From assembly GCA_963817525.1 (NCBI GenBank), contig CAWFOU010000001.1:1-64000 (forward strand): a stretch of 64,000 bases of DNA. The letters run 5' to 3'. Numbering within the stretch: position 1 is the stretch's first letter; the number at the start of each line of letters is the position of its first letter. Positions 39,335 through 48,210 of the stretch are shown here, in pieces. The notes under the pieces were generated by a model, which worked only from the letters and a program-made list of their open reading frames with translations, made no database searches and was not told where the DNA came from. Position numbers and translations under genes: made by a program. Source of the stretch: an uncultured archaeon. Its GTDB lineage: Archaea; Thermoproteota; Nitrososphaeria; Nitrososphaerales; Gagatemarchaeaceae.

Positions 39335-40057
39335 TTACAACCCCCGTCGATTGCCCCAGAGCAGAATGTGAAGGCGGAGAGAGAATCGGAACCCTCTCTC
39401 CTTGCATACCTCAACAAGCCATCTGCTCCTCTCGAGGAGGATAGCCGCGTCGATCCCCTCCGGCATCAGTATCACCGTGCCCCTTGGAATCACGAACCGC
39501 GAAATCATCGCCTCGACCTCGTCGAGGTCCTTCTTGTCGCACACGACGAACTTGAACCATGCCTTCCCGGACCCCACAAAGGCCCGCAGCGCATCCGGTC
39601 GCGTCCTCACGCCCTCCTCGTCGAGGCTGTTGGAGATCTTGGGTGAGACGTTGAAGCATTCGACCGACCTCGCAAAGTCAGCGCTCGGCGCTATCGTCCC
39701 GTTGGTCTCGACCTCGATGAAGAACCCCTCGCTCCTAAGGGTCGCGAGGAGAGGCGCTAGCACCCTCTGGTGCAGGAGCGGCTCGCCCCCCGTAAGGACC
39801 AGGTGTTTGCAGCCGAGGCTGGTCACCCTCTCAATCACCGCTGCGACGGACATGGGGACGTACTCCACGCCCGCCTTCGCCTTGTCTTGGTCCAGCCAGG
39901 TGTACTTGCTGTCGCACCACGTGCACGTCAGGTTGCAACGATAGGTGCGCAGGAACACGCTCGGGGTCCCCGAGTGGACCCCCTCCCCCTGGATGCTGAG
40001 GAAAATCTCCGATACCGGCAACTGCTCTTCTGCTGTTTGCACTCTTTTCTCCTCCAA
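39335..40057 (-). CDS. queE: 7-carboxy-7-deazaguanine synthase (radical SAM)
   Basis: SIQGEG, CNLTCTWCDS, TGGEPLL, ETNG, SPK, RLH. Confidence 0.93.
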   Translation of the reverse strand: MEEKRVQTAEEQLPVSEIFLSIQGEGVHSGTPSVFLRTYRCNLTCTWCDSKYTWLDQDKAKAGVEYVPMSVAAVIERVTSLGCKHLVLTGGEPLLHQRVLAPLLATLRSEGFFIEVETNGTIAPSADFARSVECFNVSPKISNSLDEEGVRTRPDALRAFVGSGKAWFKFVVCDKKDLDEVEAMISRFVIPRGTVILMPEGIDAAILLERSRWLVEVCKERGFRFSLRLHILLWGNRRGL

Positions 40058-40195: not shown

Positions 40196-41137
40196 CTAGG
40201 TCACCGTGAGAGAGGTGACGCTGATCGTGGTGTCGTATGGCGTCGCAACCCCATTCACCGTCGACGATCCGGCTATCGCCAGGTATGTGACTAGCTTGGT
40301 GCTGCTCCCGGAGGGGGTTCCCACGGAGAGCGCGAAGTTCGTTAGAGTGGTGGGGGTGCCGTTGCAAGGCGTTATCGTCTGCGGAAGCGTGTTCGCGACG
40401 TAGTTCGTCACCTTGAATGTGTTGGTCCCGAGCGTCACGCTAGATGTCCCTGTCGACTTGAAGTACTGGTTGGAGGTATAGGTGGAGAGCTGGTTAGCGG
40501 CCTGTATCTCCGCCGAGAAGCCCGCGAAGAGGCCTACCACCATGCTCCCGCTGATGGAGCTTGTCAGGTTGTATCCGGCCTCATTTATGGCGATAGCGGT
40601 CCCATTGCTCCTAAGGATCCACGCTGTGGAATTCATGTTCTGGCCCTCTCCTTGGAAGTTCAGGTTGACCTTGAAGGTAGTCGCGCTGGCGTACACGACG
40701 CTATATGACTCCGTGATGCTCACCGCCTGTCCGCCGGACGTGCCGTTGAACTGCAGCCCCAGCGCGGAGAACGCGCTGAGGAGAGGCACGACGCTCGCCT
40801 CCGTGGAGGTGGTAGACGTGCTCGACGAAGTGCAGGAAGTCGAGACCGCGCTTGCCGTGCTGCTCGAAGTCGTGGAGCTACTAGAGGACTTTGTGGAGCT
40901 ACTGGAGCTCGAGATCATGGCCGAGCTTGTCGAGGACGACGAGGAGCTCGTCACCATGGCGGACGAGAGGGAAGATGAACTCATGGAGCTTGAGACCATC
41001 AAGGAAGAACTCGAAGTAGTCGAGGAGGACGACTTGGCCGACAAGGCTTCGTACGCCCCAATCCCTACAACGCCGATTACAACTATAGCAATTACCGCGA
41101 TGGCCAGCGGGGCCATCCCCTTTGACTTGTGATACAT
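40196..41137 (-). CDS. Ser/Thr-rich membrane-anchored surface glycoprotein
   Basis: KG|MAPLAIAV class-III-like leader and TM, poly-Ser linker, NxT/S sequons. Confidence 0.8.
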   Translation of the reverse strand: MYHKSKGMAPLAIAVIAIVVIGVVGIGAYEALSAKSSSSTTSSSSLMVSSSMSSSSLSSAMVTSSSSSSTSSAMISSSSSSTKSSSSSTTSSSTASAVSTSCTSSSTSTTSTEASVVPLLSAFSALGLQFNGTSGGQAVSITESYSVVYASATTFKVNLNFQGEGQNMNSTAWILRSNGTAIAINEAGYNLTSSISGSMVVGLFAGFSAEIQAANQLSTYTSNQYFKSTGTSSVTLGTNTFKVTNYVANTLPQTITPCNGTPTTLTNFALSVGTPSGSSTKLVTYLAIAGSSTVNGVATPYDTTISVTSLTVT

Positions 41138-41298: not shown

Positions 41299-42228
41299 AT
41301 GTTGGACACAATGAAAGTAAAGAACTCTTACATCCCGTGGTCCTTCCTGGACATAGCAGCGAAGGAAGAGGGGCTTTTCGAGAAGCGGGGCCTCGACGTG
41401 GAATTCTTCGCGGTGGGCCGCTCTGAGGCCGAGCCAGCCGACAAGGTCGCCTGGTATGGGAACCTCGTGAGGGACGGGAACCTCGACGCCTATTCCGTTT
41501 GCGCCTGGGGGGCCATCGACAGGCTCGCAGAGAAGGAGCGGGAGAAGATCGTGGCCGCAACGACCTCCTCTGGCTATGCTTTCTCCATACTGGTCGCGCC
41601 GGGTCTCGGAATCAAGACCGCGGCGGACCTCTCTGAGATACCGATCGCCGTCAACATGAAGACCGGCTCCCATTACTGCATCCTGAGCGACCTCGAGAGG
41701 GTGCTGCCATACAGCAAGATTAAGGTCATTCACGGAGGGGAGCCCCACAACAGGCTGAAGGGCCTCTTGGAAGGCAAGTTCCAAGCGGTCGCGCTCATCA
41801 GTCCCTACACGGAGCTCGCCGTCCAGCTCGGCTTCGTCAAGGTCGCCGAGACCAAGACCGTAGACGTCCTGGCATTCGTGGCCCGGGACGACATCCCGAT
41901 GGATGTCCTGACCCGCTATCTGGCCGCCCTAGACGAGGCTGCCAAGATGATGAAGAATGACCCGGAGAGGTTCAGGGACCTCTACGTGAGGACCCTGAGG
42001 GAGACGTTCCTCGGGTTCCCAGACGAGTGGAAGACGAGGATCAACAAGCTGATCGACAAGATCGCCCCGACCATCCCCATCACCACCTGGGGCGAGCTGA
42101 CGGAGTACCCGAGGGAGTCGTTCAACTCGCTCAGCACCTGGATGACCAAGCACAACCTGCTTCAGGCCAACGTCCAGTATGAGAACATGGTGATGAGCCA
42201 GCCCCTAGAGAACGTCCAGAGCGGCTAG
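41299..42228 (+). CDS. SsuA/NMT1/THI5-fold protein without signal peptide (copy 1)
   Basis: AAKEEGLFEKRGLDVE, YSVCAWG, GSHY, LLEGKFQAVALISPY. Confidence 0.78.
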   Translation: MLDTMKVKNSYIPWSFLDIAAKEEGLFEKRGLDVEFFAVGRSEAEPADKVAWYGNLVRDGNLDAYSVCAWGAIDRLAEKEREKIVAATTSSGYAFSILVAPGLGIKTAADLSEIPIAVNMKTGSHYCILSDLERVLPYSKIKVIHGGEPHNRLKGLLEGKFQAVALISPYTELAVQLGFVKVAETKTVDVLAFVARDDIPMDVLTRYLAALDEAAKMMKNDPERFRDLYVRTLRETFLGFPDEWKTRINKLIDKIAPTIPITTWGELTEYPRESFNSLSTWMTKHNLLQANVQYENMVMSQPLENVQSG

Positions 42229-42245
42229 AGGGAGGCGAGTCGTCA

Positions 42246-43175
42246 ATGGCGCAGAAGCTGACAACAATCTCGCACGGCTACTACCAGCCGTACTTCTACT
42301 GGATGTTCCCGATAGTGGTGGCTAGGGAGGAGGGCCTTTTCGAGAAGGAAGGGGTCGCCCTTGACGTCCACGACATCGTGCAAGGGGGGCAGCCAGAGAA
42401 CAAGGCGGAGTGGTATAGGGAAGCGCTCGACGAGCGGTCCCGGGACTTTTACTTCTGCTGCGCGTGGCAGGGCGTCTACAGCACCTGCGAGACGGGCAAG
42501 GGCAAGATAGGCGCGGCGATAAAGTCCACGCTAATCAAGACCTTCGGGATCTACACAAAGCCCGACTCCCCCATCCGCAACATACTCGACATCACCGAGA
42601 ACGGAGTGCAGATAGCGGTGAATAAGAACGCGGACGCGCACTACGTGACCTTGGAGAACCTCGCCGAATTCGTGCCCGCCTCGCAGATCAAGCTCAAGCA
42701 CCTGGGCGGGATCGACGGGTGCTTCGAGGCCCTGGCGAGAGGAGAAGTCCAGGCCGCGACGCTGGCAGGGCCGTACGCCGAGGCCGCAGAGGCGATAGGC
42801 TACAGGAGGGTGATGGCGCTCTCGCGGACCCTCCCTACGCTCATCGTGTTCAACGATGCCGTCGAGACTTCGGCGGCGAACTCGTTCCTGGCGGCCGTCA
42901 ACAAGGCGGTGGACAAGGTGAACGGCGACAGGACCAAGTATCGCGCAAGGTACCTGAAAGAGTTCGAGGAGGTCGTGAACAAATACATTCCCGAGCTCAA
43001 GGCCGACCTGCCAAAGATAAAGGCGAGGATTAGCCTCCCCACTTGGGCAGAGACCAAGGTGCTTGGCGAGCCCGAATTCAACGAGATTCATGACTTCCTG
43101 GTGGCGCACGGCCTCTCGTCCAAGGGGAAGGGATACGAGGGGACGGTCAAGACGAACCTCGCCATAGCGCACTGA
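42246..43175 (+). CDS. SsuA/NMT1/THI5-fold protein without signal peptide (copy 2)
   Basis: VAREEGLFEKEGVALD, YFCCAWQG, DAHY, LARGEVQAATLAGPY; paralog of the upstream gene. Confidence 0.78.
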   Translation: MAQKLTTISHGYYQPYFYWMFPIVVAREEGLFEKEGVALDVHDIVQGGQPENKAEWYREALDERSRDFYFCCAWQGVYSTCETGKGKIGAAIKSTLIKTFGIYTKPDSPIRNILDITENGVQIAVNKNADAHYVTLENLAEFVPASQIKLKHLGGIDGCFEALARGEVQAATLAGPYAEAAEAIGYRRVMALSRTLPTLIVFNDAVETSAANSFLAAVNKAVDKVNGDRTKYRARYLKEFEEVVNKYIPELKADLPKIKARISLPTWAETKVLGEPEFNEIHDFLVAHGLSSKGKGYEGTVKTNLAIAH

Positions 43176-43194
43176 CCTCGCGAGTGTGGGCTAG

Positions 43195-44574
43195 ATGGTA
43201 ACCAGAATGGAGAGGGCAATAGAGATTCCGCGCCGGTGGTACAACATCGCCCCAGACCTCCCGAGCAAGCTCCCCCCGGTGATAGACCAGAACACGCACG
43301 GCATCGCGGACAAGAAGATACTCCACAGGCTCTTCGTCAACGAGGTCGCAAAGGCCGAGTACTCCGGCGAGCGCTTCATCACCATCCCGGAGGAGCTCAG
43401 GGACGTATACTCCATCTGGAGGCCCACTCCCCTGGTGAGGGCGAAGCGGCTCGAGAGATACCTCAACACTCCGGCCAGGATCTACTACAAGAACGAGACC
43501 GTGAGCCCGCCGGGGTCCCACAAGGCCAACGCGGCCGTGGCCCAGGCCTACTACGCGAAGCAGGAGGGGACGGACAGGCTCGTGACCAGCACGACGGCGG
43601 GCCAGTGGGGCACCGCGCTCGCCTTCGGCTGCACCATCTTCGGGGTAAAGTGCACGGTCTACATGTCAAAGTCAAGCTACGACAGCAAGCCCTATCGGAA
43701 GGACCTAGCGGAGGCCTGGGGCGCCGAGATAATCTCCAGCCCCAGTACGAGGACGAAGGTGGGCAGGGACATCCTGAAGGAGGACCCGAACTCCAGCGGG
43801 TCGATGGCGGTCGCGAAGAGCGAGGCCCTCGAGGACACCGAGAACGACCCCACTGCAAAGGACGCCGTGGGGAGCATCATGAACTTCGTCCTCGCAACGC
43901 AGACGGTGATAGGCCAGGAGGCGCAGGCGCAGATGGAACCCTACGAAGACTACCCTGACATGGTGATCGGCTGCGTCGGAGGAGGAAGCAACTTCTCCGG
44001 GATATTCTGGCCGTACTACTACGAGATGGTCAACAAGATCAGCCCCAAGCAGGTCGAGTTCCTCGGCGTGGAGTCGTCCGCCGTCCCGAAGCTGACGCAG
44101 GGCCAATACATCTACGACCACTCCGACGTGATGCGGATGAGCCCGCTCTTCAAGATGTACACCGCCGGGCACACGTACAACCCTCCCGAGATCCACACGG
44201 GCGGCTTGAGGGTCCACGGCACGGCCCCGACGCTCAGCCTCCTGCACGCCGCGGGCATCGTCAAGGCCGTCGCGTACAACCAGGTGGAGGTGTTCGAGGC
44301 CGGCGCCCTGTTCGCGAGGACCGAAGGCATCCTCCCCGCTCCAGAGTCCGCCCACGCGATAAAGGCCACGATAGACGAGGCCAAGCGTTGCAAGGCGCAG
44401 AACAAAGAGAAGGTCATACTCTTCAGCCTGTGCGGACACGGCATCCTGGACATCGAAGGATACCGCGAGTACTTCTCGGGCAAGATGACGGAGAACAACG
44501 CCGACCCAGCGGAGCTGAAGAGGTCCCTCGACGAGGTGAAGGGCCTCTATCCCTGGCTCCAGGGCAGCGACTAA
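43195..44574 (+). CDS. trpB2: TrpB2-family PLP enzyme with non-canonical active site
   Basis: WYNI, WRPTPL, GSHKAN (PLP Lys), GCVGGGSNF, PAPESAHA, CGHG; the TETGAGQWG motif reads TSTTAGQWG. Confidence 0.9.
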   Translation: MVTRMERAIEIPRRWYNIAPDLPSKLPPVIDQNTHGIADKKILHRLFVNEVAKAEYSGERFITIPEELRDVYSIWRPTPLVRAKRLERYLNTPARIYYKNETVSPPGSHKANAAVAQAYYAKQEGTDRLVTSTTAGQWGTALAFGCTIFGVKCTVYMSKSSYDSKPYRKDLAEAWGAEIISSPSTRTKVGRDILKEDPNSSGSMAVAKSEALEDTENDPTAKDAVGSIMNFVLATQTVIGQEAQAQMEPYEDYPDMVIGCVGGGSNFSGIFWPYYYEMVNKISPKQVEFLGVESSAVPKLTQGQYIYDHSDVMRMSPLFKMYTAGHTYNPPEIHTGGLRVHGTAPTLSLLHAAGIVKAVAYNQVEVFEAGALFARTEGILPAPESAHAIKATIDEAKRCKAQNKEKVILFSLCGHGILDIEGYREYFSGKMTENNADPAELKRSLDEVKGLYPWLQGSD

Positions 44575-44609
44575 GCATCAAATACACGGACGGTTGAGCT
44601 AGCGAGCCC

Positions 44610-45446
44610 ATGGCCAAGCGAAGACCTCTCTCCTACGGAGAGTACCTTGGCCTCGACGAGCTCCTGGACCTCCAGCGCCTCGTCTCGAAGCCCAGGCAGC
44701 ACGACGAGGTGCTGTTCCTCATCGCCCACCAGGCCTACGAGCTCTGGTTCAAGCTGATGCTCAACGAGCTGGAGACCGCCATCTCGCACATGCTGGCCGA
44801 CAACCTCGCCGAGGCGACCAGGCTGATACGCAGGGTCGTCCCGGTCCAGAGGGTCCTGATAGACCAGCTCGAGGTCCTCGAGACGATCAGGCCGACGGAT
44901 TTCTTGAAGTTCAGGAGCATACTCCATCCGGCGAGCGGCTTCCAGTCGCTCCAGTTCAGGGAGCTCGAGTTCATCTCCGGGCAGAAGGACGAGAGGTTCC
45001 TCAAGCTCCACGCCGGGAACGAGAAGGACTACGAGCAGCTCCTGAAGAGGTGGGAGGCGCCCTCGCTCTGGGACGGGTTCAGGACGGTCCTCGAGGAGAG
45101 GGGGTTCGACGTCGGGGGGAGGGCGAAGGGGAAAGAGGCCGAGGTCTTCGAGCTCGAGGTCCAGGCGTCCCTCAAGATATTCACGGAGAGCAAGTACCTG
45201 CACGTCGCCGACCTCGCCGAAGCCATGCTGGAGTACGACAAGTACTTCCAGCTCTGGCGCAGCCACCACATCATGATGGTGGAGCGCGTGATAGGCGGGA
45301 GGCCGGGCACGGGCGAACGTGAGGTCAAGAAGACGATGGGGCCGACCTCATTCCGTCCCTCAGGCGTCAACTACCTCCAGACGACGATGGGCAAGAGGTT
45401 CTTCCCGGCGCTCTGGGCTGCCCGGACAAGGATCGGGGCGTACTGA
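44610..45446 (+). CDS. kynA: Tryptophan 2,3-dioxygenase family heme enzyme
   Basis: SYGEYL, HDEVLFLIAHQAYELWFK, SGFQSLQFRELE, HIMMVERVIG..GTG, FFPALW. Confidence 0.88.
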   Translation: MAKRRPLSYGEYLGLDELLDLQRLVSKPRQHDEVLFLIAHQAYELWFKLMLNELETAISHMLADNLAEATRLIRRVVPVQRVLIDQLEVLETIRPTDFLKFRSILHPASGFQSLQFRELEFISGQKDERFLKLHAGNEKDYEQLLKRWEAPSLWDGFRTVLEERGFDVGGRAKGKEAEVFELEVQASLKIFTESKYLHVADLAEAMLEYDKYFQLWRSHHIMMVERVIGGRPGTGEREVKKTMGPTSFRPSGVNYLQTTMGKRFFPALWAARTRIGAY

Positions 45447-45462: not shown

Positions 45463-46416
45463 TCACGGAAGCCGAAGCTTGGAGAAAGTCTCCAGCGTCC
45501 CCGGGAGGGTCGAGAGGTCTTCCGCGTCCGGATGGAAGGAATCCTTCGCGGAGTACTCGACCTCGAAGGGGTACCCCGCCTTCACGCCGGGGAGTGAGGG
45601 GGATATCCCTGTGATCTTCCCGAGGAGCCTCTGACCCTCCTTGCTCAACAGAAAGTCCAGGAAGTTGCGCGCCGACTTGTTGTCCTTCGCCGTCTTCAGG
45701 AGTCCCGCGGTGGTGAACGTGAGCATCCGTGGTATCCGCTCGCTCGCGAACGACCTGACCGGGGAGCCCGCGGTCCTCTCACGGAAGTAGGCCAGCGAAT
45801 ACACTGTCAAGGACAGGTCGTGGTCGCCGTCGATGAGGCCCTGCAACAGGTGGTCGATGCAGTCGTAGGTCAGGGGCCTGTTGGGGCCTGCCAGGCTCTC
45901 GAGGAACGCTGTCCACTTCTTCTCGGAGACCCTCCTTTTGAGGAAGTTCATGTAGTGGGCGCCGATGTTGCCGAACTTGCTCGTTGTGAGAGACTGCATC
46001 CCGAGCCTCCCCCTCCATTCGGGGGACGCTATCTCCTCGAGGCTCTCCGGCAGGTCCTTGGCGGCGAGCCTCTTCGGGTTGTGGGCCATCGTCATGAACG
46101 TGACGCCCGCCGCGAACCAGTTGAGCCCCCTATCGTAGAACTCCTGGGGATAGGCGCCGATGTCCTTCGCGTCGTGTGGTGTGAAGAGCCCCTCAGCGTT
46201 CATTTGCAGGGCGACGTAGTGCGGGACCAATACGATGTCCGCCGTCCTCATGCCGTTCTTCATCTCCTCGCGAATCCGCTCCCGCACCTGGAAGGGGTGG
46301 TCGTCGAGGTAGACAGGAAACTCCTCCAGGGTGTTCTTCTTCCTGAACTCCCAAAGGAGGTCGGACGTACCGGACCGGAGCCCGAGCGAAGCGTAGATTA
46401 TCACGCGCTCAGGCAT
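45463..46416 (-). CDS. AfuA/FbpA-like solute-binding-fold protein without signal peptide
   Basis: IIYASL, ADIV, LPESLEEIASPEWRGRL, ARNFLDFLLSKEGQ. Confidence 0.75.
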   Translation of the reverse strand: MPERVIIYASLGLRSGTSDLLWEFRKKNTLEEFPVYLDDHPFQVRERIREEMKNGMRTADIVLVPHYVALQMNAEGLFTPHDAKDIGAYPQEFYDRGLNWFAAGVTFMTMAHNPKRLAAKDLPESLEEIASPEWRGRLGMQSLTTSKFGNIGAHYMNFLKRRVSEKKWTAFLESLAGPNRPLTYDCIDHLLQGLIDGDHDLSLTVYSLAYFRERTAGSPVRSFASERIPRMLTFTTAGLLKTAKDNKSARNFLDFLLSKEGQRLLGKITGISPSLPGVKAGYPFEVEYSAKDSFHPDAEDLSTLPGTLETFSKLRLP

Positions 46417-46487: not shown

Positions 46488-47060
46488 TCATTTCGGATAG
46501 GCCGCGATTACTTTCACCATGGAGCTTATCAAGGCGCTGGCGTCCTCCGGCTCGACGTTCGAGCCCAGTCTCGCTCCCTGCGATGCACCATCGTCAGTGG
46601 CAGAGTCGTATTCAATGGTCTCAGTGTCGGCCAATCCATCTTTCCCGATGAGCGCGTCGATGTGTCGGTCGTCTCCCAATTCTCTTAACCTATCGAATGC
46701 AGCGAGGATGATGGTTTCGTGTCCGTTCTCATGGATCCGGGCAGCCTGCAAATACCTTTTCCATTCCAGAGCATCTTGATTCGACGCTCCTTTTCCATCC
46801 CATTCGGGCAAGGTCGTAAGGACGCTATAGGTAACCAGTTTGCCCTCCCGGCCATCGACAGATTGCCAAGAGTAGGTTGTGAAAGATGGATGCCCGTCTT
46901 TGTTCGGCGTCAGCTCTCTCATGCTTTCTCTTATCTTCTCGAGGCTTCCTCCTGCTACCGAGTACGTTTTGACAGACGAGCTTCCGTGGACTTCCAGATA
47001 GGTCAAGGCGCCAGGCCGTAAGGCTGCGGCGAGGGATAAAAGTTCTGGGTCACCCAGTTT
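46488..47060 (-). CDS. Hypothetical protein, AT-richer than neighbours (start uncertain)
   Basis: About 190-aa open frame filling the gap; the ORF-track N-terminus overlaps the aminotransferase. Confidence 0.45.
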   Translation of the reverse strand, partial: KLGDPELLSLAAALRPGALTYLEVHGSSSVKTYSVAGGSLEKIRESMRELTPNKDGHPSFTTYSWQSVDGREGKLVTYSVLTTLPEWDGKGASNQDALEWKRYLQAARIHENGHETIILAAFDRLRELGDDRHIDALIGKDGLADTETIEYDSATDDGASQGARLGSNVEPEDASALISSMVKVIAAYPK

Positions 47061-47070
47061 TCGAGGACAA

Positions 47071-48210
47071 TTAGCCGGAGCCCCGGAAGAAGTCGCCGAG
47101 CCTGCGCGTCCCCTCCACGATGGTCTCGGGGGGGCTGCCGAAGGAGATCCTGAGGTGCTTCTCGCCCGAGGGGCCAAAGATGACGCCGGGGAGCACCGCG
47201 ACATTGTGTTCGTCGAGGAGCCGGCGGGCGACCGTCATCGAGCTCAGTCGCCCCTCAAACTTCGGGAACCCGTAGAACGCCCCCTCCACCTTCCCGCTCT
47301 GTAGGGCGGGGATCTTCGAGAGCCCCTCCTCGAGGAGCCCCCTCCTCTTCCTGAGCTCCTCCCTGAACTCCGCGGTGTAGCGGTCACAGTTTCGGATTGC
47401 GTAGGCCGAGGCAGCCTGGATGAACGGCGGGAAGCAGGTCACGGCGGTCTCGAGGAACCTGTTGACCCTCAGGATCGTCTCCTTGTCGGCGACGACGTAG
47501 CCGGCGCGCCAGCCGGTCATCGCGAAGCTCTTCGAGAGGCTGAAAAGAGAGATGACGGCCCGCGGGGATCCCTCCATCGAGCCGATCGAGAGGTGCTTCT
47601 TCTCGTAGACCAGGTCCTCGTACGCCTCGTCGCTGATGACCTTTATCCCGCGCCCTACGCAGAGATCGAGCAGCTCCTTCAGCTCGCTCCTCCCGAAGAC
47701 CTTCCCTGCAGGGTTCGAAGGCGTGTTGACGATGATCGCACGCGTCCTTGGGGTGATCTTGGACTTGACCTCGTCGACGTCCAGGGAGAAGTCTTCGGCG
47801 AGCTTGTACCTCACCGGCTTGCCTCCCGAGAGCAGCACTGGCTCGGAGTAGTAGTATCCCGGGTCTGGGACCAGCGCCTCGTAGCCCTGCTTGTACAGCG
47901 AAAGCAGCGACGCGTAGATGGATAACTTGGTCGTGATGAAGATGACGTTCTCCAGCCCTGCCTTGAGGTGGTTCTTCCGCCTCACCTTATCCGCTATCGC
48001 CTCCCTGAGGTCGTCCGACCCCCAAGACGAGCTGTAGTGCCCACCCCCGCTCTTCATGCTCTGGTAGGCCGCCTCGACTATCGGGAGCGGGGTGTCGAAC
48101 GACGGCTCCCCTATGGAAAGGGTGAACACCTTCTCGCCCGCGGCTCTCTTCTTCGCCGCGAGGTTGAATATCTCAAAGGCGGGCGAGTCTTGAATCTCGT
48201 CTAGGGGCAT
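47071..48210 (-). CDS. Class I PLP aminotransferase (AspC/kynurenine aminotransferase-like)
   Basis: IGEPSF, NTPSNPAG, SDEAY, SLSKSFAMTGWRAG, GAFY. Confidence 0.92.
   Translation of the reverse strand: MPLDEIQDSPAFEIFNLAAKKRAAGEKVFTLSIGEPSFDTPLPIVEAAYQSMKSGGGHYSSSWGSDDLREAIADKVRRKNHLKAGLENVIFITTKLSIYASLLSLYKQGYEALVPDPGYYYSEPVLLSGGKPVRYKLAEDFSLDVDEVKSKITPRTRAIIVNTPSNPAGKVFGRSELKELLDLCVGRGIKVISDEAYEDLVYEKKHLSIGSMEGSPRAVISLFSLSKSFAMTGWRAGYVVADKETILRVNRFLETAVTCFPPFIQAASAYAIRNCDRYTAEFREELRKRRGLLEEGLSKIPALQSGKVEGAFYGFPKFEGRLSSMTVARRLLDEHNVAVLPGVIFGPSGEKHLRISFGSPPETIVEGTRRLGDFFRGSG

Follow-up and report, generated by a model that had tools for sequence, protein, structure and literature searches.

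A natural TrpB2 paralogue with a replaced catalytic glutamate, and its gene partners, point to an undescribed aromatic amino-acid pathway in archaea

The window, which is the whole stretch of 64,000 nucleotides analysed here, raises the question of what a TrpB-family enzyme does once the glutamate that activates indole has been replaced. TrpB is among the most heavily engineered biocatalysts, and altering its conserved glutamate is a key laboratory step toward new nucleophiles. We take E109 of Salmonella TrpB, equivalent to E104 of PfTrpB, to be this indole-activating residue. A sequence-only reading of the window had proposed that one of its genes is a TrpB2 with serine in place of the glutamate, and that the product might be a natural non-tryptophan, possibly tyrosine-like, synthase. 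We analysed the gene together with its relatives and its neighbours.

Serine at the position of the catalytic glutamate

The gene and its informative codons are as follows.

43195..44574, + strand: TrpB2-family PLP enzyme, named TrpB2S here (P0001, 459 aa), identified by NCBIfam and Pfam profiles and a match to 6hul_B
43522..43524, + strand: codon of the PLP Schiff-base lysine, Lys110 (GSHKAN), which aligns with K82 of PfTrpB in AHKTN and is invariant in the clade
43582..43611, + strand: motif VTSTTAGQWG, residues 130-139 (codons GTG ACC AGC ACG ACG GCG GGC CAG TGG GGC)
43588..43590, + strand: codon AGC of Ser132, opposite the catalytic glutamate in alignments
43594..43596, + strand: codon of Thr134, a glycine in canonical TrpB2 (T in 49/49 clade members, G in 71/71 canonical sequences)
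43804..43818, + strand: codons of Met204 to Lys208 (MAVAK), with Met204 equivalent to L161 and Lys208 to I165 of PfTrpB
44212..44214, + strand: codon of Val340 in GGLRVHG, equivalent to Y301 of PfTrpB; the preceding Arg339 is equivalent to D300

TrpB2S scored above the whole-protein cut-offs of NF009057 (613 bits; cut-off 366) and TIGR01415 (560.7 bits; cut-off 518.85), scored 148 bits with PALP and matched 6hul_B with an E value of 2.7e-123. As had been noted from the letters, the lysine that binds PLP is intact, as is the phosphate loop GGGSN (residues 262-266); among 45 clade sequences K110, T133, Q137, R339 and G262-S265 were invariant, with N266 nearly so. The comparison supports an intact TrpB2-family enzyme that has kept the PLP lysine and phosphate loop and in which the indole-activating glutamate has been replaced.

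The motif VTSTTAGQWG lies in the frame of the open reading frame at 43195..44574, exactly as the sequence-only reading had it. In pairwise alignments, Ser132 is paired with the glutamate of VTETGAGQWG in 6hul_B and of TTETGAGQWG in 4qys_B and 6hte_B, and also with E104 of PfTrpB in IAETGAGQHG; thus, it is Ser132, and not another acidic residue, that occupies this column. All 49 clade members covering the site carry either serine (40) or asparagine (9), versus glutamate in all 71 of the nearest canonical TrpB2 sequences. The serine codon is AGC or AGT in 15/15 orthologous loci, in which adjacent codons for Thr, Ala and Gly show synonymous variation, and a change from GAR to AGC alters all three codon positions. 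The claim that the substitution is no artefact therefore holds up: given these three observations, Ser132 is neither chance nor error, and the motif is, on the codon comparison, under purifying selection. The accompanying claim that the glutamate is near-invariant applies to the 71 nearest canonical sequences and was overstated for the wider family. When the column was tallied for P0001 and 150 TrpB2-like representatives, some of which are fragments or garbled predictions, we found E in 84, a gap in 18, G in 13, D in 12, S in 6, R in 4, A and Q in 3 each, P and C in 2 each, and Y, V, T and H once each, so TrpB2-like paralogues without the glutamate are not rare.

The substitution does not stand alone. 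The divergent motifs GSMAVAKSEA (202-211), NFVLATQT (230-237) and GGLRVHG (336-342), which the sequence-only reading had also picked out, are present. Because the phmmer pairwise alignment with PfTrpB was unreliable at residues 176-235, an hhalign profile alignment was used there; against the TrpB1 of the host itself, hhalign placed SMAVAKSEA opposite TLKDAINEA and GGLRVHG opposite AGLDYPG. Positions 132, 134, 208, 204 and 340 thereby correspond to E104, G106, I165, L161 and Y301 of PfTrpB, and the canonical pocket and tunnel residues at the last three have given way to K208, M204 and V340. Position 208 is lysine in 48/50 clade members versus isoleucine in 71/71 canonical TrpB2 sequences, the two exceptions (P0193 and P0199) belonging to a single basal Asn branch. 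Likewise, position 204 is methionine in 44/50 versus leucine in 71/71, position 340 is valine in 46/49 (threonine in 2, histidine in 1) versus tyrosine in 71/71, and position 231 is phenylalanine in 47/50 versus histidine in 69/71. A preprint assigns TrpB residues 161 and 165 to the helix by which the substrate tunnel is defined. With the glutamate replaced and several pocket and tunnel positions changed in a conserved way, the most economical reading of the substitutions is a nucleophile other than plain indole. Loss of the catalytic glutamate could also mark a non-catalytic or regulatory relic of TrpB2; however, the PLP lysine, phosphate loop, carboxylate loop and arginine are invariant and the new pocket residues are highly conserved in their own right, which makes a pseudoenzyme barely credible.

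In a quick IQ-TREE phylogeny of 76 rows, the clade, with members carrying Ser or Asn, was monophyletic (SH-aLRT 100) and nested within archaeal canonical TrpB2 (98). Its basal Asn branches comprise P0193/P0199, P0195 and P0196/P0197/P0200; a phylum-wide search of 401 genomes with the basal Asn-type P0196 returned nothing closer than 61% identity. In a metagenome scan with the clade alignment, five clade loci (L118, L119, L120, L122 and L123) were found among the 80 matches listed, the rest being canonical TrpB2. The stretch 41299..45446 was present in ten DNA or untyped sequencing data sets labelled as soil or peat metagenomes (one unlabelled); no RNA data set was listed as containing it. The best explanation of the phylogeny and the substitutions is that TrpB2S is a neofunctionalised TrpB, probably descended from archaeal canonical TrpB2.

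The host genome also encodes a canonical TrpB2 (C1:595387-596652) as well as a TrpB1 adjoining TrpA, and TrpB2S is therefore a third, re-purposed TrpB paralogue. It might nevertheless still be an indole-using tryptophan synthase, serving a private salvage or detoxification route from indole through tryptophan to kynurenine, with Ser/Asn and the other changes compensating for the lost glutamate. Its intact TrpB2 core agrees with such a role, as does the canonical look of the dioxygenase-like partner described below. However, all six positions, each fixed in 69-71 of the 71 canonical sequences, have changed and become fixed again, and therefore an unchanged substrate is not expected; a canonical TrpB2 is already available in the genome; and mutation of the catalytic glutamate in Salmonella TrpB is said to lower the indole reaction strongly. 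Continued use of plain indole is accordingly unlikely in our judgement.

A dioxygenase and three binding-protein-fold partners

TrpB2S is surrounded by the following genes, a context that the sequence-only reading had overlooked.

41299..42228, + strand: PBP1 (P0002, 309 aa), SsuA/NMT1-fold protein, predicted cytoplasmic, paralogue of PBP2, from a weak TIGR01728 match and the Atlas search
42246..43175, + strand: PBP2 (P0003, 309 aa), SsuA/Thi5-fold protein, predicted cytoplasmic, from an AF2 model and Foldseek
44610..45446, + strand: TDO-like haem dioxygenase (P0004, 278 aa; PF03301), 35 nt downstream of TrpB2S
45463..46416, - strand: ferric-binding-protein-like protein (P0275, 317 aa; SBP_bac_6, 56.5 bits), predicted cytoplasmic, convergent with the TDO-like gene
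47071..48210, - strand: class I/II aminotransferase (Aminotran_1_2, 182 bits), a frequent but not constant neighbour

TrpB2S, the TDO-like gene, PBP1, PBP2 and the ferric-binding-protein-like gene make up the five core genes. All five were present in the window, in 6/6 close loci and in 11/14 additional loci; for the remaining three, the missing gene would fall beyond the end of the contig. Although gene order and orientation vary among loci, TrpB2S and the TDO-like gene are adjacent and co-directional wherever both lie on one contig. Among 97 genomes of the host's family, TrpB2S was found in 18 and the TDO-like gene in 19, these being the same 18 and G438, whose TrpB2S copy is interrupted. 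The aminotransferase adjoins the module in the window and in L007-L012, L118, L217, L219 and L222, but not in L116, L117, L119, L215, L216 and L220; its best NCBIfam matches, GntC-like (260 bits) and archaeal aspartate aminotransferase (253 bits), were both below the cut-offs. In five loci, the TDO-like gene is directly followed by an MBL-fold gene, the nearest solved relatives of its product being amide-hydrolysing class B lactamases, and wherever this gene exists the order of transcription is TrpB2S, TDO, MBL. The order of genes does not fix the order of reactions. QueE-like and PTPS-like genes occur near the module in two lineages and hint at a link to 7-deazapurines, but only two loci show it and genes of both kinds serve housekeeping functions.

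The TDO-like protein scored 164.6 bits with PF03301 (cut-off 34.9) and 218.9 bits with the equivalog TIGR03036, below its cut-off of 390.7, and matched XcTDO (2nw7_A) with an E value of 5.7e-46. Its residues F36, H40, R102, H220 and T234 align with F51, H55, R117, H240 and T254 of XcTDO and were invariant in 115/115 clade sequences. Within this set, H240 of XcTDO is presumably the proximal histidine that binds haem, H55 the distal histidine, and R117 and T254 the anchors of the amino acid. Y113 of XcTDO is a phenylalanine in the archaeal protein, and 13 residues are inserted after GTGE236. Leaving aside this insertion and residue 106, which is polar and variable, the sequence looks like that of an ordinary TDO and offers nothing that would positively indicate a modified substrate. 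Because TrpB2S is tied by position and by genome distribution to an enzyme with these residues kept, the pairing argues for indole-like or kynurenine-linked chemistry.

Since the residues that bind L-tryptophan and act in catalysis in TDO are all kept in 115/115 sequences, the simplest substrate of the TDO-like enzyme is L-tryptophan itself. The dioxygenase might then act first, converting L-tryptophan to N-formylkynurenine and kynurenine, and TrpB2S would couple amino-acrylate downstream to a kynurenine-type aniline or a nucleophile derived from it, with the lysine binding its carboxylate. The host makes tryptophan through TrpB1-TrpA and canonical TrpB2, and the gain of Lys208 with loss of the glutamate would suit a carboxylate-bearing nucleophile. 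However, the order TrpB2S, TDO, MBL fits, weakly, a synthase that acts first, the three binding-protein-fold partners have no part in this scheme, and alkylation of anilines or kynurenines is not known to us from any natural member of the TrpB family. Overall, we regard this order of events as unlikely, though less so than continued use of plain indole.

The partner also bears on the tyrosine-like activity suggested by the sequence-only reading, in which phenols would be alkylated. A citing preprint gives E105G, among other changes that include COMM-domain mutations, for TyrS variants engineered from Thermotoga maritima TrpB (TmTrpB), such as the tyrosine synthase TyrS4, and the exchange of tyrosine for Val340 enlarges the pocket. 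However, the residue is serine or asparagine, never glycine, in 49/49 clade members, a lysine stands at the tunnel position equivalent to I165 of PfTrpB, the fixed partner is of the tryptophan-dioxygenase type and not a tyrosine-modifying enzyme, and no component of the module has a connection with phenols. Thus, the departure from plain indole in that proposal stands as the most economical reading of the sequences, whereas its tyrosine-like part appears very improbable.

The other three partners are proteins of binding-protein fold. For PBP1, a Pfam search gave no match and TIGR01728 reached 33 bits, far below its cut-off, while the Atlas feature search led to NMT1-type clusters at 0.98. PBP2 was modelled by AF2 with a pLDDT of 89, and its top Foldseek matches in the PDB were SsuA, Thi5, TauA, PqqT, ThiY and DszB. 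The two are 27-31% identical and have in common the invariant residues W19, K53, W56, Y57, D67, Y69, C72, W74, N126, Y133, H152 and W267. Their relatives, 116 proteins that are all at least 50% identical, were found only in the lineage of the module. The model of P0275 was moderately confident (pLDDT 67.7, below 50 at residues 109-149 and 199-223), and its top Foldseek matches (HitA, FbpA, FutA and the metal-citrate protein MctA) would indicate fold class only; DDH (38-40), D185-C186 and D188-H189 were invariant in 10/10 of its orthologues.

No signal peptide was visible in the N-termini of the aligned orthologues of the three proteins, including 16 for PBP1, all of which begin directly with the first strand. 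No permease adjoins the module in the window or in seven diverse loci, and the 31 neighbours scanned included no transporter gene, save one oligopeptide-type ABC ATPase in one locus. As judged from sequence and surroundings, PBP1, PBP2 and the FbpA-like protein do not appear to be substrate-binding components of an ABC transporter, which would have an export signal or anchor and an adjacent permease and ATPase.

The SsuA-like partners share their fold with proteins that bind sulfonates and taurine and with the desulfinase DszB, and PBP1 carries a TGSH loop in place of the SSSH of E. coli SsuA. TrpB2S might therefore carry out a beta-substitution with a heteroatom nucleophile (a thiol, sulfite, sulfinate, thiosulfate or amine), in the manner of CysM, CysK2 or cysteate synthase, while the SsuA-like partners handle a sulfonated compound. 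Heteroatom nucleophiles have no need of the glutamate, and an anionic nucleophile would be well served by a cationic residue in the pocket, as in CysM. Nonetheless, such a reaction leaves the obligate pairing with a TDO-like enzyme unexplained, and in sequence the partners resemble SsuA only marginally (E 0.006); we consider it improbable.

Candidate reactions of the module

Starting from the family membership, the substitutions with their conservation and the fixed gene partnership, all of which were computed here, the reading that we tentatively place first is that TrpB2S is a beta-substitution synthase for a nucleophile other than indole, probably a polar or anionic indole-like one, and that the dioxygenase then opens its product. 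TrpB2S would still bind PLP through Lys110 and form amino-acrylate from O-phospho-L-serine or L-serine, because it retains the carboxylate loop, the arginine of GGLR and the GGGSN loop; this arginine presumably binds the phosphate of O-phosphoserine in TrpB. The nucleophile site seems to have been rebuilt, with Ser/Asn in place of Glu, an added threonine side chain, lysine and methionine in the tunnel helix and valine for tyrosine, and plain indole would therefore no longer be activated. The amino-acrylate would instead be coupled to an indole-like (hetero)aromatic nucleophile that is more polar or anionic and that, given the gene linkage, may be made, bound or delivered by the three predicted cytoplasmic partners. 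The adjacent dioxygenase might then open the resulting tryptophan analogue to a kynurenine-type product, from which the MBL-fold amidohydrolase, where present, would remove the formyl group, and the neighbouring aminotransferase could close it to a quinoline-2-carboxylate. The description of the nucleophile as anionic or polar derives only from the charge shift in the pocket (glutamate lost, lysine gained) and from the sulfonate- or cofactor-binding fold class of the partners.

A bolder scheme, which we think distinctly unlikely, makes the five to seven genes a new archaeal pathway in which the SsuA/Thi5-fold proteins are enzymes that supply an indole bearing a substituent such as a hydroxy or carboxy group, TrpB2S forms the C-C bond, and the dioxygenase, amidohydrolase and aminotransferase yield a xanthurenate-like quinoline-2-carboxylate without a kynurenine monooxygenase. 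The product would be a metal chelator in acidic, iron-rich soils, with the FbpA-like partner handling the metal or its chelate. The module occurs in uncultured Thaumarchaeota that do not oxidise ammonia and that one genomic description (PMC10640624) reports to be abundant in acidic soils; the words tryptophan, kynurenine and dioxygenase do not occur in its main text.

Kynureninase (TIGR01814) had no match in the host genome, which is 95% complete, and the one candidate for a cyclase-type formamidase, a PF04199 gene, is located on a different contig; neither activity is encoded in the module in the window and loci examined. NadA (PF02445) was found in 0/97 family genomes, with or without the module, and QRPTase_C matches (open reading frames of about 400 aa) in 76/97, unrelated to its presence. 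With kynureninase not found either, the idea that the module replaces a missing quinolinate synthase in NAD synthesis was rejected.

Taken together, TrpB2S, the TDO-like gene and the three orphan binding-protein-like genes point to what may be an undescribed aromatic amino-acid pathway. Literature searches pairing tryptophan 2,3-dioxygenase with TrpB-like proteins or with Thaumarchaeota found nothing, possibly an artefact of the comma in the enzyme name, which is unsearchable; a search on TrpB2, phosphoserine and tryptophan synthase gave unrelated matches only, and one on the catalytic glutamate of TrpB nothing relevant. In this clade, evolution has fixed the change of the glutamate along with five co-adapted changes to the pocket and tunnel of a TrpB2 scaffold of thermostable lineage. 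TrpB2S thus offers a starting enzyme that nature has already made, as well as an experiment of nature in re-specifying a nucleophile site. With TrpB2S strictly accompanied by a dioxygenase and three orphan, predicted cytoplasmic proteins of binding-protein fold, the module makes for a compact and testable candidate pathway.

Comparison with known systems

TrpB2 proteins are stand-alone or weakly TrpA-binding paralogues of TrpB. About half of the residues of the solved TrpB2 6HUL are identical to those of TrpB2S, and the PLP lysine, the GGGSN loop, the carboxylate loop and the arginine of GGLR are common to it and to 6HUL, 4QYS and 6HTE, whereas the catalytic glutamate and five otherwise fixed positions differ. 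The SsuA, TauA and ThiY binders, Thi5 and DszB have the fold of PBP1 and PBP2 (Foldseek E 2.7e-12 to 2e-8, TM 0.54-0.70) but are only 12-17% identical to them, and the histidine that Thi5 has four residues after the conserved lysine is absent from these two partners.

The kynA-kynB-kynU sets and the quinolobactin route likewise combine a TDO-type dioxygenase with a hydrolase and/or an aminotransferase in one cluster; quinolobactin of Pseudomonas fluorescens is reportedly made from tryptophan via xanthurenic acid by such a cluster. The archaeal module differs in that it has no monooxygenase, includes a dedicated TrpB2-like synthase and adds predicted cytoplasmic proteins of SsuA/Thi5 and FbpA fold, which to our knowledge are part of no known kynurenine cluster. 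Finally, engineered TyrS, as described in the citing preprint, is likewise a TrpB scaffold in which replacement of the conserved glutamate accompanies a change of the accepted nucleophile; however, TyrS is a laboratory enzyme derived from TrpB1 and carrying glycine, whereas TrpB2S is natural, derived from TrpB2, and combines serine or asparagine with a lysine in the tunnel.

Identity of P0001 and its TrpB paralogues

The sequence-only reading proposed that the catalytic glutamate of a TrpB2 enzyme is naturally replaced by serine, and this was borne out by the codons, the frame and the alignments to solved TrpB2 structures and to the reference enzyme PfTrpB. The codons at 43582..43611 are GTG ACC AGC ACG ACG GCG GGC CAG TGG GGC, within the following gene:

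43195..44574, + strand: P0001 (TrpB2S), 459 aa, with VTSTTAGQWG as residues 130-139

P0001 scored above both curated TrpB2 cut-offs (NF009057, 613 bits, cut-off 366; TIGR01415, 560.7 bits, cut-off 518.85). Among solved structures, it is closest to the Sulfolobus-type TrpB2 entries 6hul_B (E 2.7e-123), 4qys_B and 6hte_B, and in all three alignments Ser132 faces the Glu of V/TTETGAGQWG; against PfTrpB, Ser132 aligned with E104 and K110 with K82. The further motifs claimed for the protein (GSMAVAKSEA, NFVLATQT, GGLRVHG, the GSHKAN lysine and GGGSN) were all found. In the source assembly (2.82 Mb, 15 contigs; completeness 95%, contamination 8.75%), P0001 is a third TrpB paralogue beside two others:

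C1:595387-596652: canonical TrpB2, with VTETGAGQWG, GSLGIAISEA, NHVLLHQT and GGLRYH
C1:130485-131555: TrpB1, with IAETGAGQHG; TrpA immediately after

Outside the window, C3:24655-25903 (L003/L004/L006) carries a further TrpB-like gene, the fourth, whose motifs (TTETGAGQWG, GSLGIAISEA, NHVLLHQT, GGLRYHG) are those of canonical TrpB2. It is split across three frames, which may reflect a pseudogene, misassembly or a contaminating contig. The window encodes topoisomerase VI, RIO and KH genes, indicative of an archaeal source. Close relatives of the locus showed 89-97% protein identity, and an isolate among them is placed under Ca. Gagatemarchaeum in a table of PMC10640624.

Conservation of the altered nucleophile site

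P0001 was aligned with the best 120 clusters of a 5.8-billion-protein collection, and the set split in two: a clade of 50 sequences including P0001 (59-90% identical) and 71 canonical TrpB2 (at most 59%). The TrpB2 set was also aligned by profile with the genome's own TrpB1, which paired SMAVAKSEA with TLKDAINEA and GGLRVHG with AGLDYPG.

Residues at altered positions of P0001 in the clade and in canonical TrpB2, and the retained R339, with PfTrpB numbering taken from the P0001-PfTrpB alignment
S132: clade S 40, N 9 (49 cover the site); canonical E 71; PfTrpB E104
T134: clade T 49/49; canonical G 71; PfTrpB G106
M204: clade M 44/50; canonical L 71; PfTrpB L161
K208: clade K 48/50; canonical I 71; PfTrpB I165
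F231: clade F 47/50; canonical H 69 (of 71)
R339: PfTrpB D300
V340: clade V 46/49; canonical Y 71; PfTrpB Y301

Positions 100, 102, 111, 130, 158, 223, 310 and 313 and a C-terminal tail block were also clade-specific. The Ser132 codon was AGC or AGT in 15/15 orthologous loci, with synonymous variation in the flanking codons. Of the 1.84 billion representatives in a library clustered at 50% identity, the nearest full-length one reached only 51% identity to P0001, and just two fragments were nearer.

The alignment and tree that had been suggested as a check defined a Ser/Asn clade, which was monophyletic in a quick IQ-TREE search of 76 rows (SH-aLRT 100) and nested within the archaeal canonical TrpB2 group (98). 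The clade contributed 17 of its 49 other members and the canonical group 12 of its 71; the remaining rows were 400-480-aa representatives among P0005-P0069 and the genome's own paralogues, with TrpB1 dropped by the program. In this quick tree, Asn at position 132 occurred on the deepest clade branches and the Asp-type rows formed a separate clade; Asn (AAY) to Ser (AGY) is one step. The accompanying claim that the Glu is near-invariant held for the canonical TrpB2 nearest P0001 (71/71), but the wider family was less uniform than claimed: across P0001 and 150 representatives the column held E in 84 rows, G in 13, D in 12 and S in 6, the rest being other residues and 18 gaps. Asp (VTDTGAGQWG with YYAALHQT) or Gly takes the place of this Glu in other TrpB2-like clades of some size (P0011, P0017, P0039, P0044, P0046 and others), of which we know no characterised member.

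In TrpB, the catalytic Glu activates indole; in TrpB2, the GGLR Arg binds the O-phosphoserine phosphate. The mapping of the substitutions to PfTrpB positions indicates that the nucleophile side of the P0001 active site is altered, an acid and an aromatic wall being predicted lost and a Lys plus two hydroxyl-bearing side chains gained. A heteroatom nucleophile at this remodelled site is improbable in our estimate, and the phenol or tyrosine synthase put forward by the sequence-only reading highly improbable. The serine/phosphoserine side is predicted to be untouched; K110, T133, Q137, R339 and G262-S265 are invariant in the clade and N266 nearly so, and it is hardly credible that TrpB2S is a pseudoenzyme.

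Organisation and distribution of the gene module

Together with TrpB2S, the first three genes below form a tightly spaced run of four:

41299..42228, + strand: PBP1, of SsuA/Thi5-type fold
42246..43175, + strand: PBP2, of the same fold type
44610..45446, + strand: TDO-like, a tryptophan-dioxygenase-like haem protein, after TrpB2S
45463..46416, - strand: ferric-binding-protein-like (FbpA-like) gene, convergent with the four + strand genes
46488..47204, - strand: DUF922 ORF (54.8 bits), between the aminotransferase and FbpA-like genes
47071..48210, - strand: class I/II aminotransferase, convergent with the four + strand genes

The five core genes (PBP1, PBP2, TrpB2S, TDO-like and FbpA-like) were clustered in 6/6 close loci and in 11/14 further loci with TrpB2S 66-90% identical; in the three incomplete loci (L118, L221, L222), the absent gene would fall past the contig end. 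TrpB2S followed by TDO was constant across loci, while the binding-protein-fold genes were arranged and oriented differently among lineages, and one full-module locus carried the Asn variant. The aminotransferase adjoins the module in the window and L007-L012, as it does in 4/14 further loci (L118, L217, L219, L222). An MBL-fold gene stood immediately 3' of TDO in 5 loci; among solved structures it is closest to class B beta-lactamases, which are amide hydrolases, and no homologue was found in the source genome. Among the 31 scanned, there were no other recurrent neighbours except Fe-ADH, AcnX and aldehyde dehydrogenase (two loci, one genus). The DUF922 ORF, whose listed coordinates share 134 nt with the aminotransferase ORF, was rejected as a member, having no counterpart in L217, L219 and L222, where the aminotransferase abuts the FbpA-like gene.

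One close relative had its TDO-like gene split into two overlapping pieces by a TGA or frameshift (L010:7415-8240 and G429:C3:182365-183196) with the remaining module genes intact, and the TrpB2S copy of G438 was interrupted (L221:897-2120), reflecting either occasional module decay or assembly errors. In one lineage, a DDE transposase gene (L215:6802-7799) lay between the FbpA-like and PBP2 genes, which were undisrupted. Two further genes lie upstream of the module:

39335..40057, - strand: QueE-like radical SAM gene (TIGR03365 108.7 bits, below the cut-off of 206.1)
40196..41137, - strand: 313-aa ORF separating the QueE-like gene from the module; its N-terminal hydrophobic segment precedes ~100 residues almost all Ser/Thr

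The 313-aa ORF matched no Pfam family, and its product resembles a densely glycosylated surface protein. A QueE-like gene was also near the module in the close relatives L007 and L008, and a PTPS/QueD-like gene in L216, from another lineage; these 7-deazaguanine genes are housekeeping ones, and their proximity is probably fortuitous.

Among the 97 family genomes, source genome included, TrpB2S was found in 18 (E <= 1e-180), and the TDO-like gene in 19 (E <= 1e-10), namely the same 18 and G438; no TDO without the module was found among the 97. Across 401 evenly sampled genomes of the class, Ser-type TrpB2S occurred only in the source genome, G299 and G319. A word-indexed search returned 116 PBP2 relatives, all at least 50% identical, and the best 120 TDO-like relatives were all at least 56% identical, the named organisms in both sets being Nitrososphaerales or Thaumarchaeota. 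Therefore, as far as these searches see, the module is a lineage-restricted accessory gene set, confined to non-ammonia-oxidising Thaumarchaeota.

Partner proteins and candidate function

PBP1 and PBP2 are paralogues (27-31% identical) whose common invariant residues are an unusually aromatic set plus Lys, Asp, Cys and His. The predicted model of PBP2 (pLDDT 89) matched SsuA, TauA, ThiY and PqqT and the PBP-fold enzymes Thi5 and DszB. The FbpA-like protein has a ferric-binding-protein fold in a model of moderate confidence, with DDH and DC-DH motifs invariant among aligned orthologues. No signal peptide was found in the aligned N-termini of the three proteins, and no permease among the scanned neighbours of their genes; we read them as probably cytoplasmic, acting as enzymes or carriers.

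The TDO-like protein matched the reference dioxygenase XcTDO (E 5.7e-46). Its F36, H40, R102, H220 and T234, invariant in 115/115 clade sequences, align with XcTDO F51, H55, R117, H240 and T254, which include the distal and proximal His and the residues anchoring the amino-acid moiety. It departs from XcTDO at Y113, here Phe, and at G121, where the residue is polar and varies among H, R, N and Q; the loop that follows the Thr also carries a 13-aa insertion. That the dioxygenase comes first, acting on L-Trp with TrpB2S downstream, is unlikely.

No kynureninase was found in the source genome, its one cyclase-family gene lies on a different contig, and NadA (PF02445) was in 0/97 family genomes, with the control positive in 12/14 reference genomes. 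Therefore, a standard kynurenine or NAD pathway was rejected for the module. ORFs of ~400 aa with a QRPTase_C domain occurred in 76/97 family genomes, and the family may rely on niacin salvage or an unknown route. A private indole-to-kynurenine route is, in our view, distinctly unlikely.

The reading that we tentatively prefer is that the binding-protein-fold partners would supply a polar or anionic indole-like nucleophile, which TrpB2S would join into a tryptophan analogue; this would pass first to the dioxygenase, next to the MBL hydrolase and possibly to the aminotransferase, giving a kynurenine- or quinoline-type product. The strongest facts are the rebuilt, conserved nucleophile site with an intact beta-substitution core, the presence of canonical TrpB2 and TrpB1 elsewhere in the genome, and the obligate pairing with a TDO-type protein. 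The TrpB2 enzyme family is already known. A literature search found no paper on the TrpB2S clade or the module, some null results possibly being artefacts of query syntax; the variant catalytic site, the partners and the product would be new.
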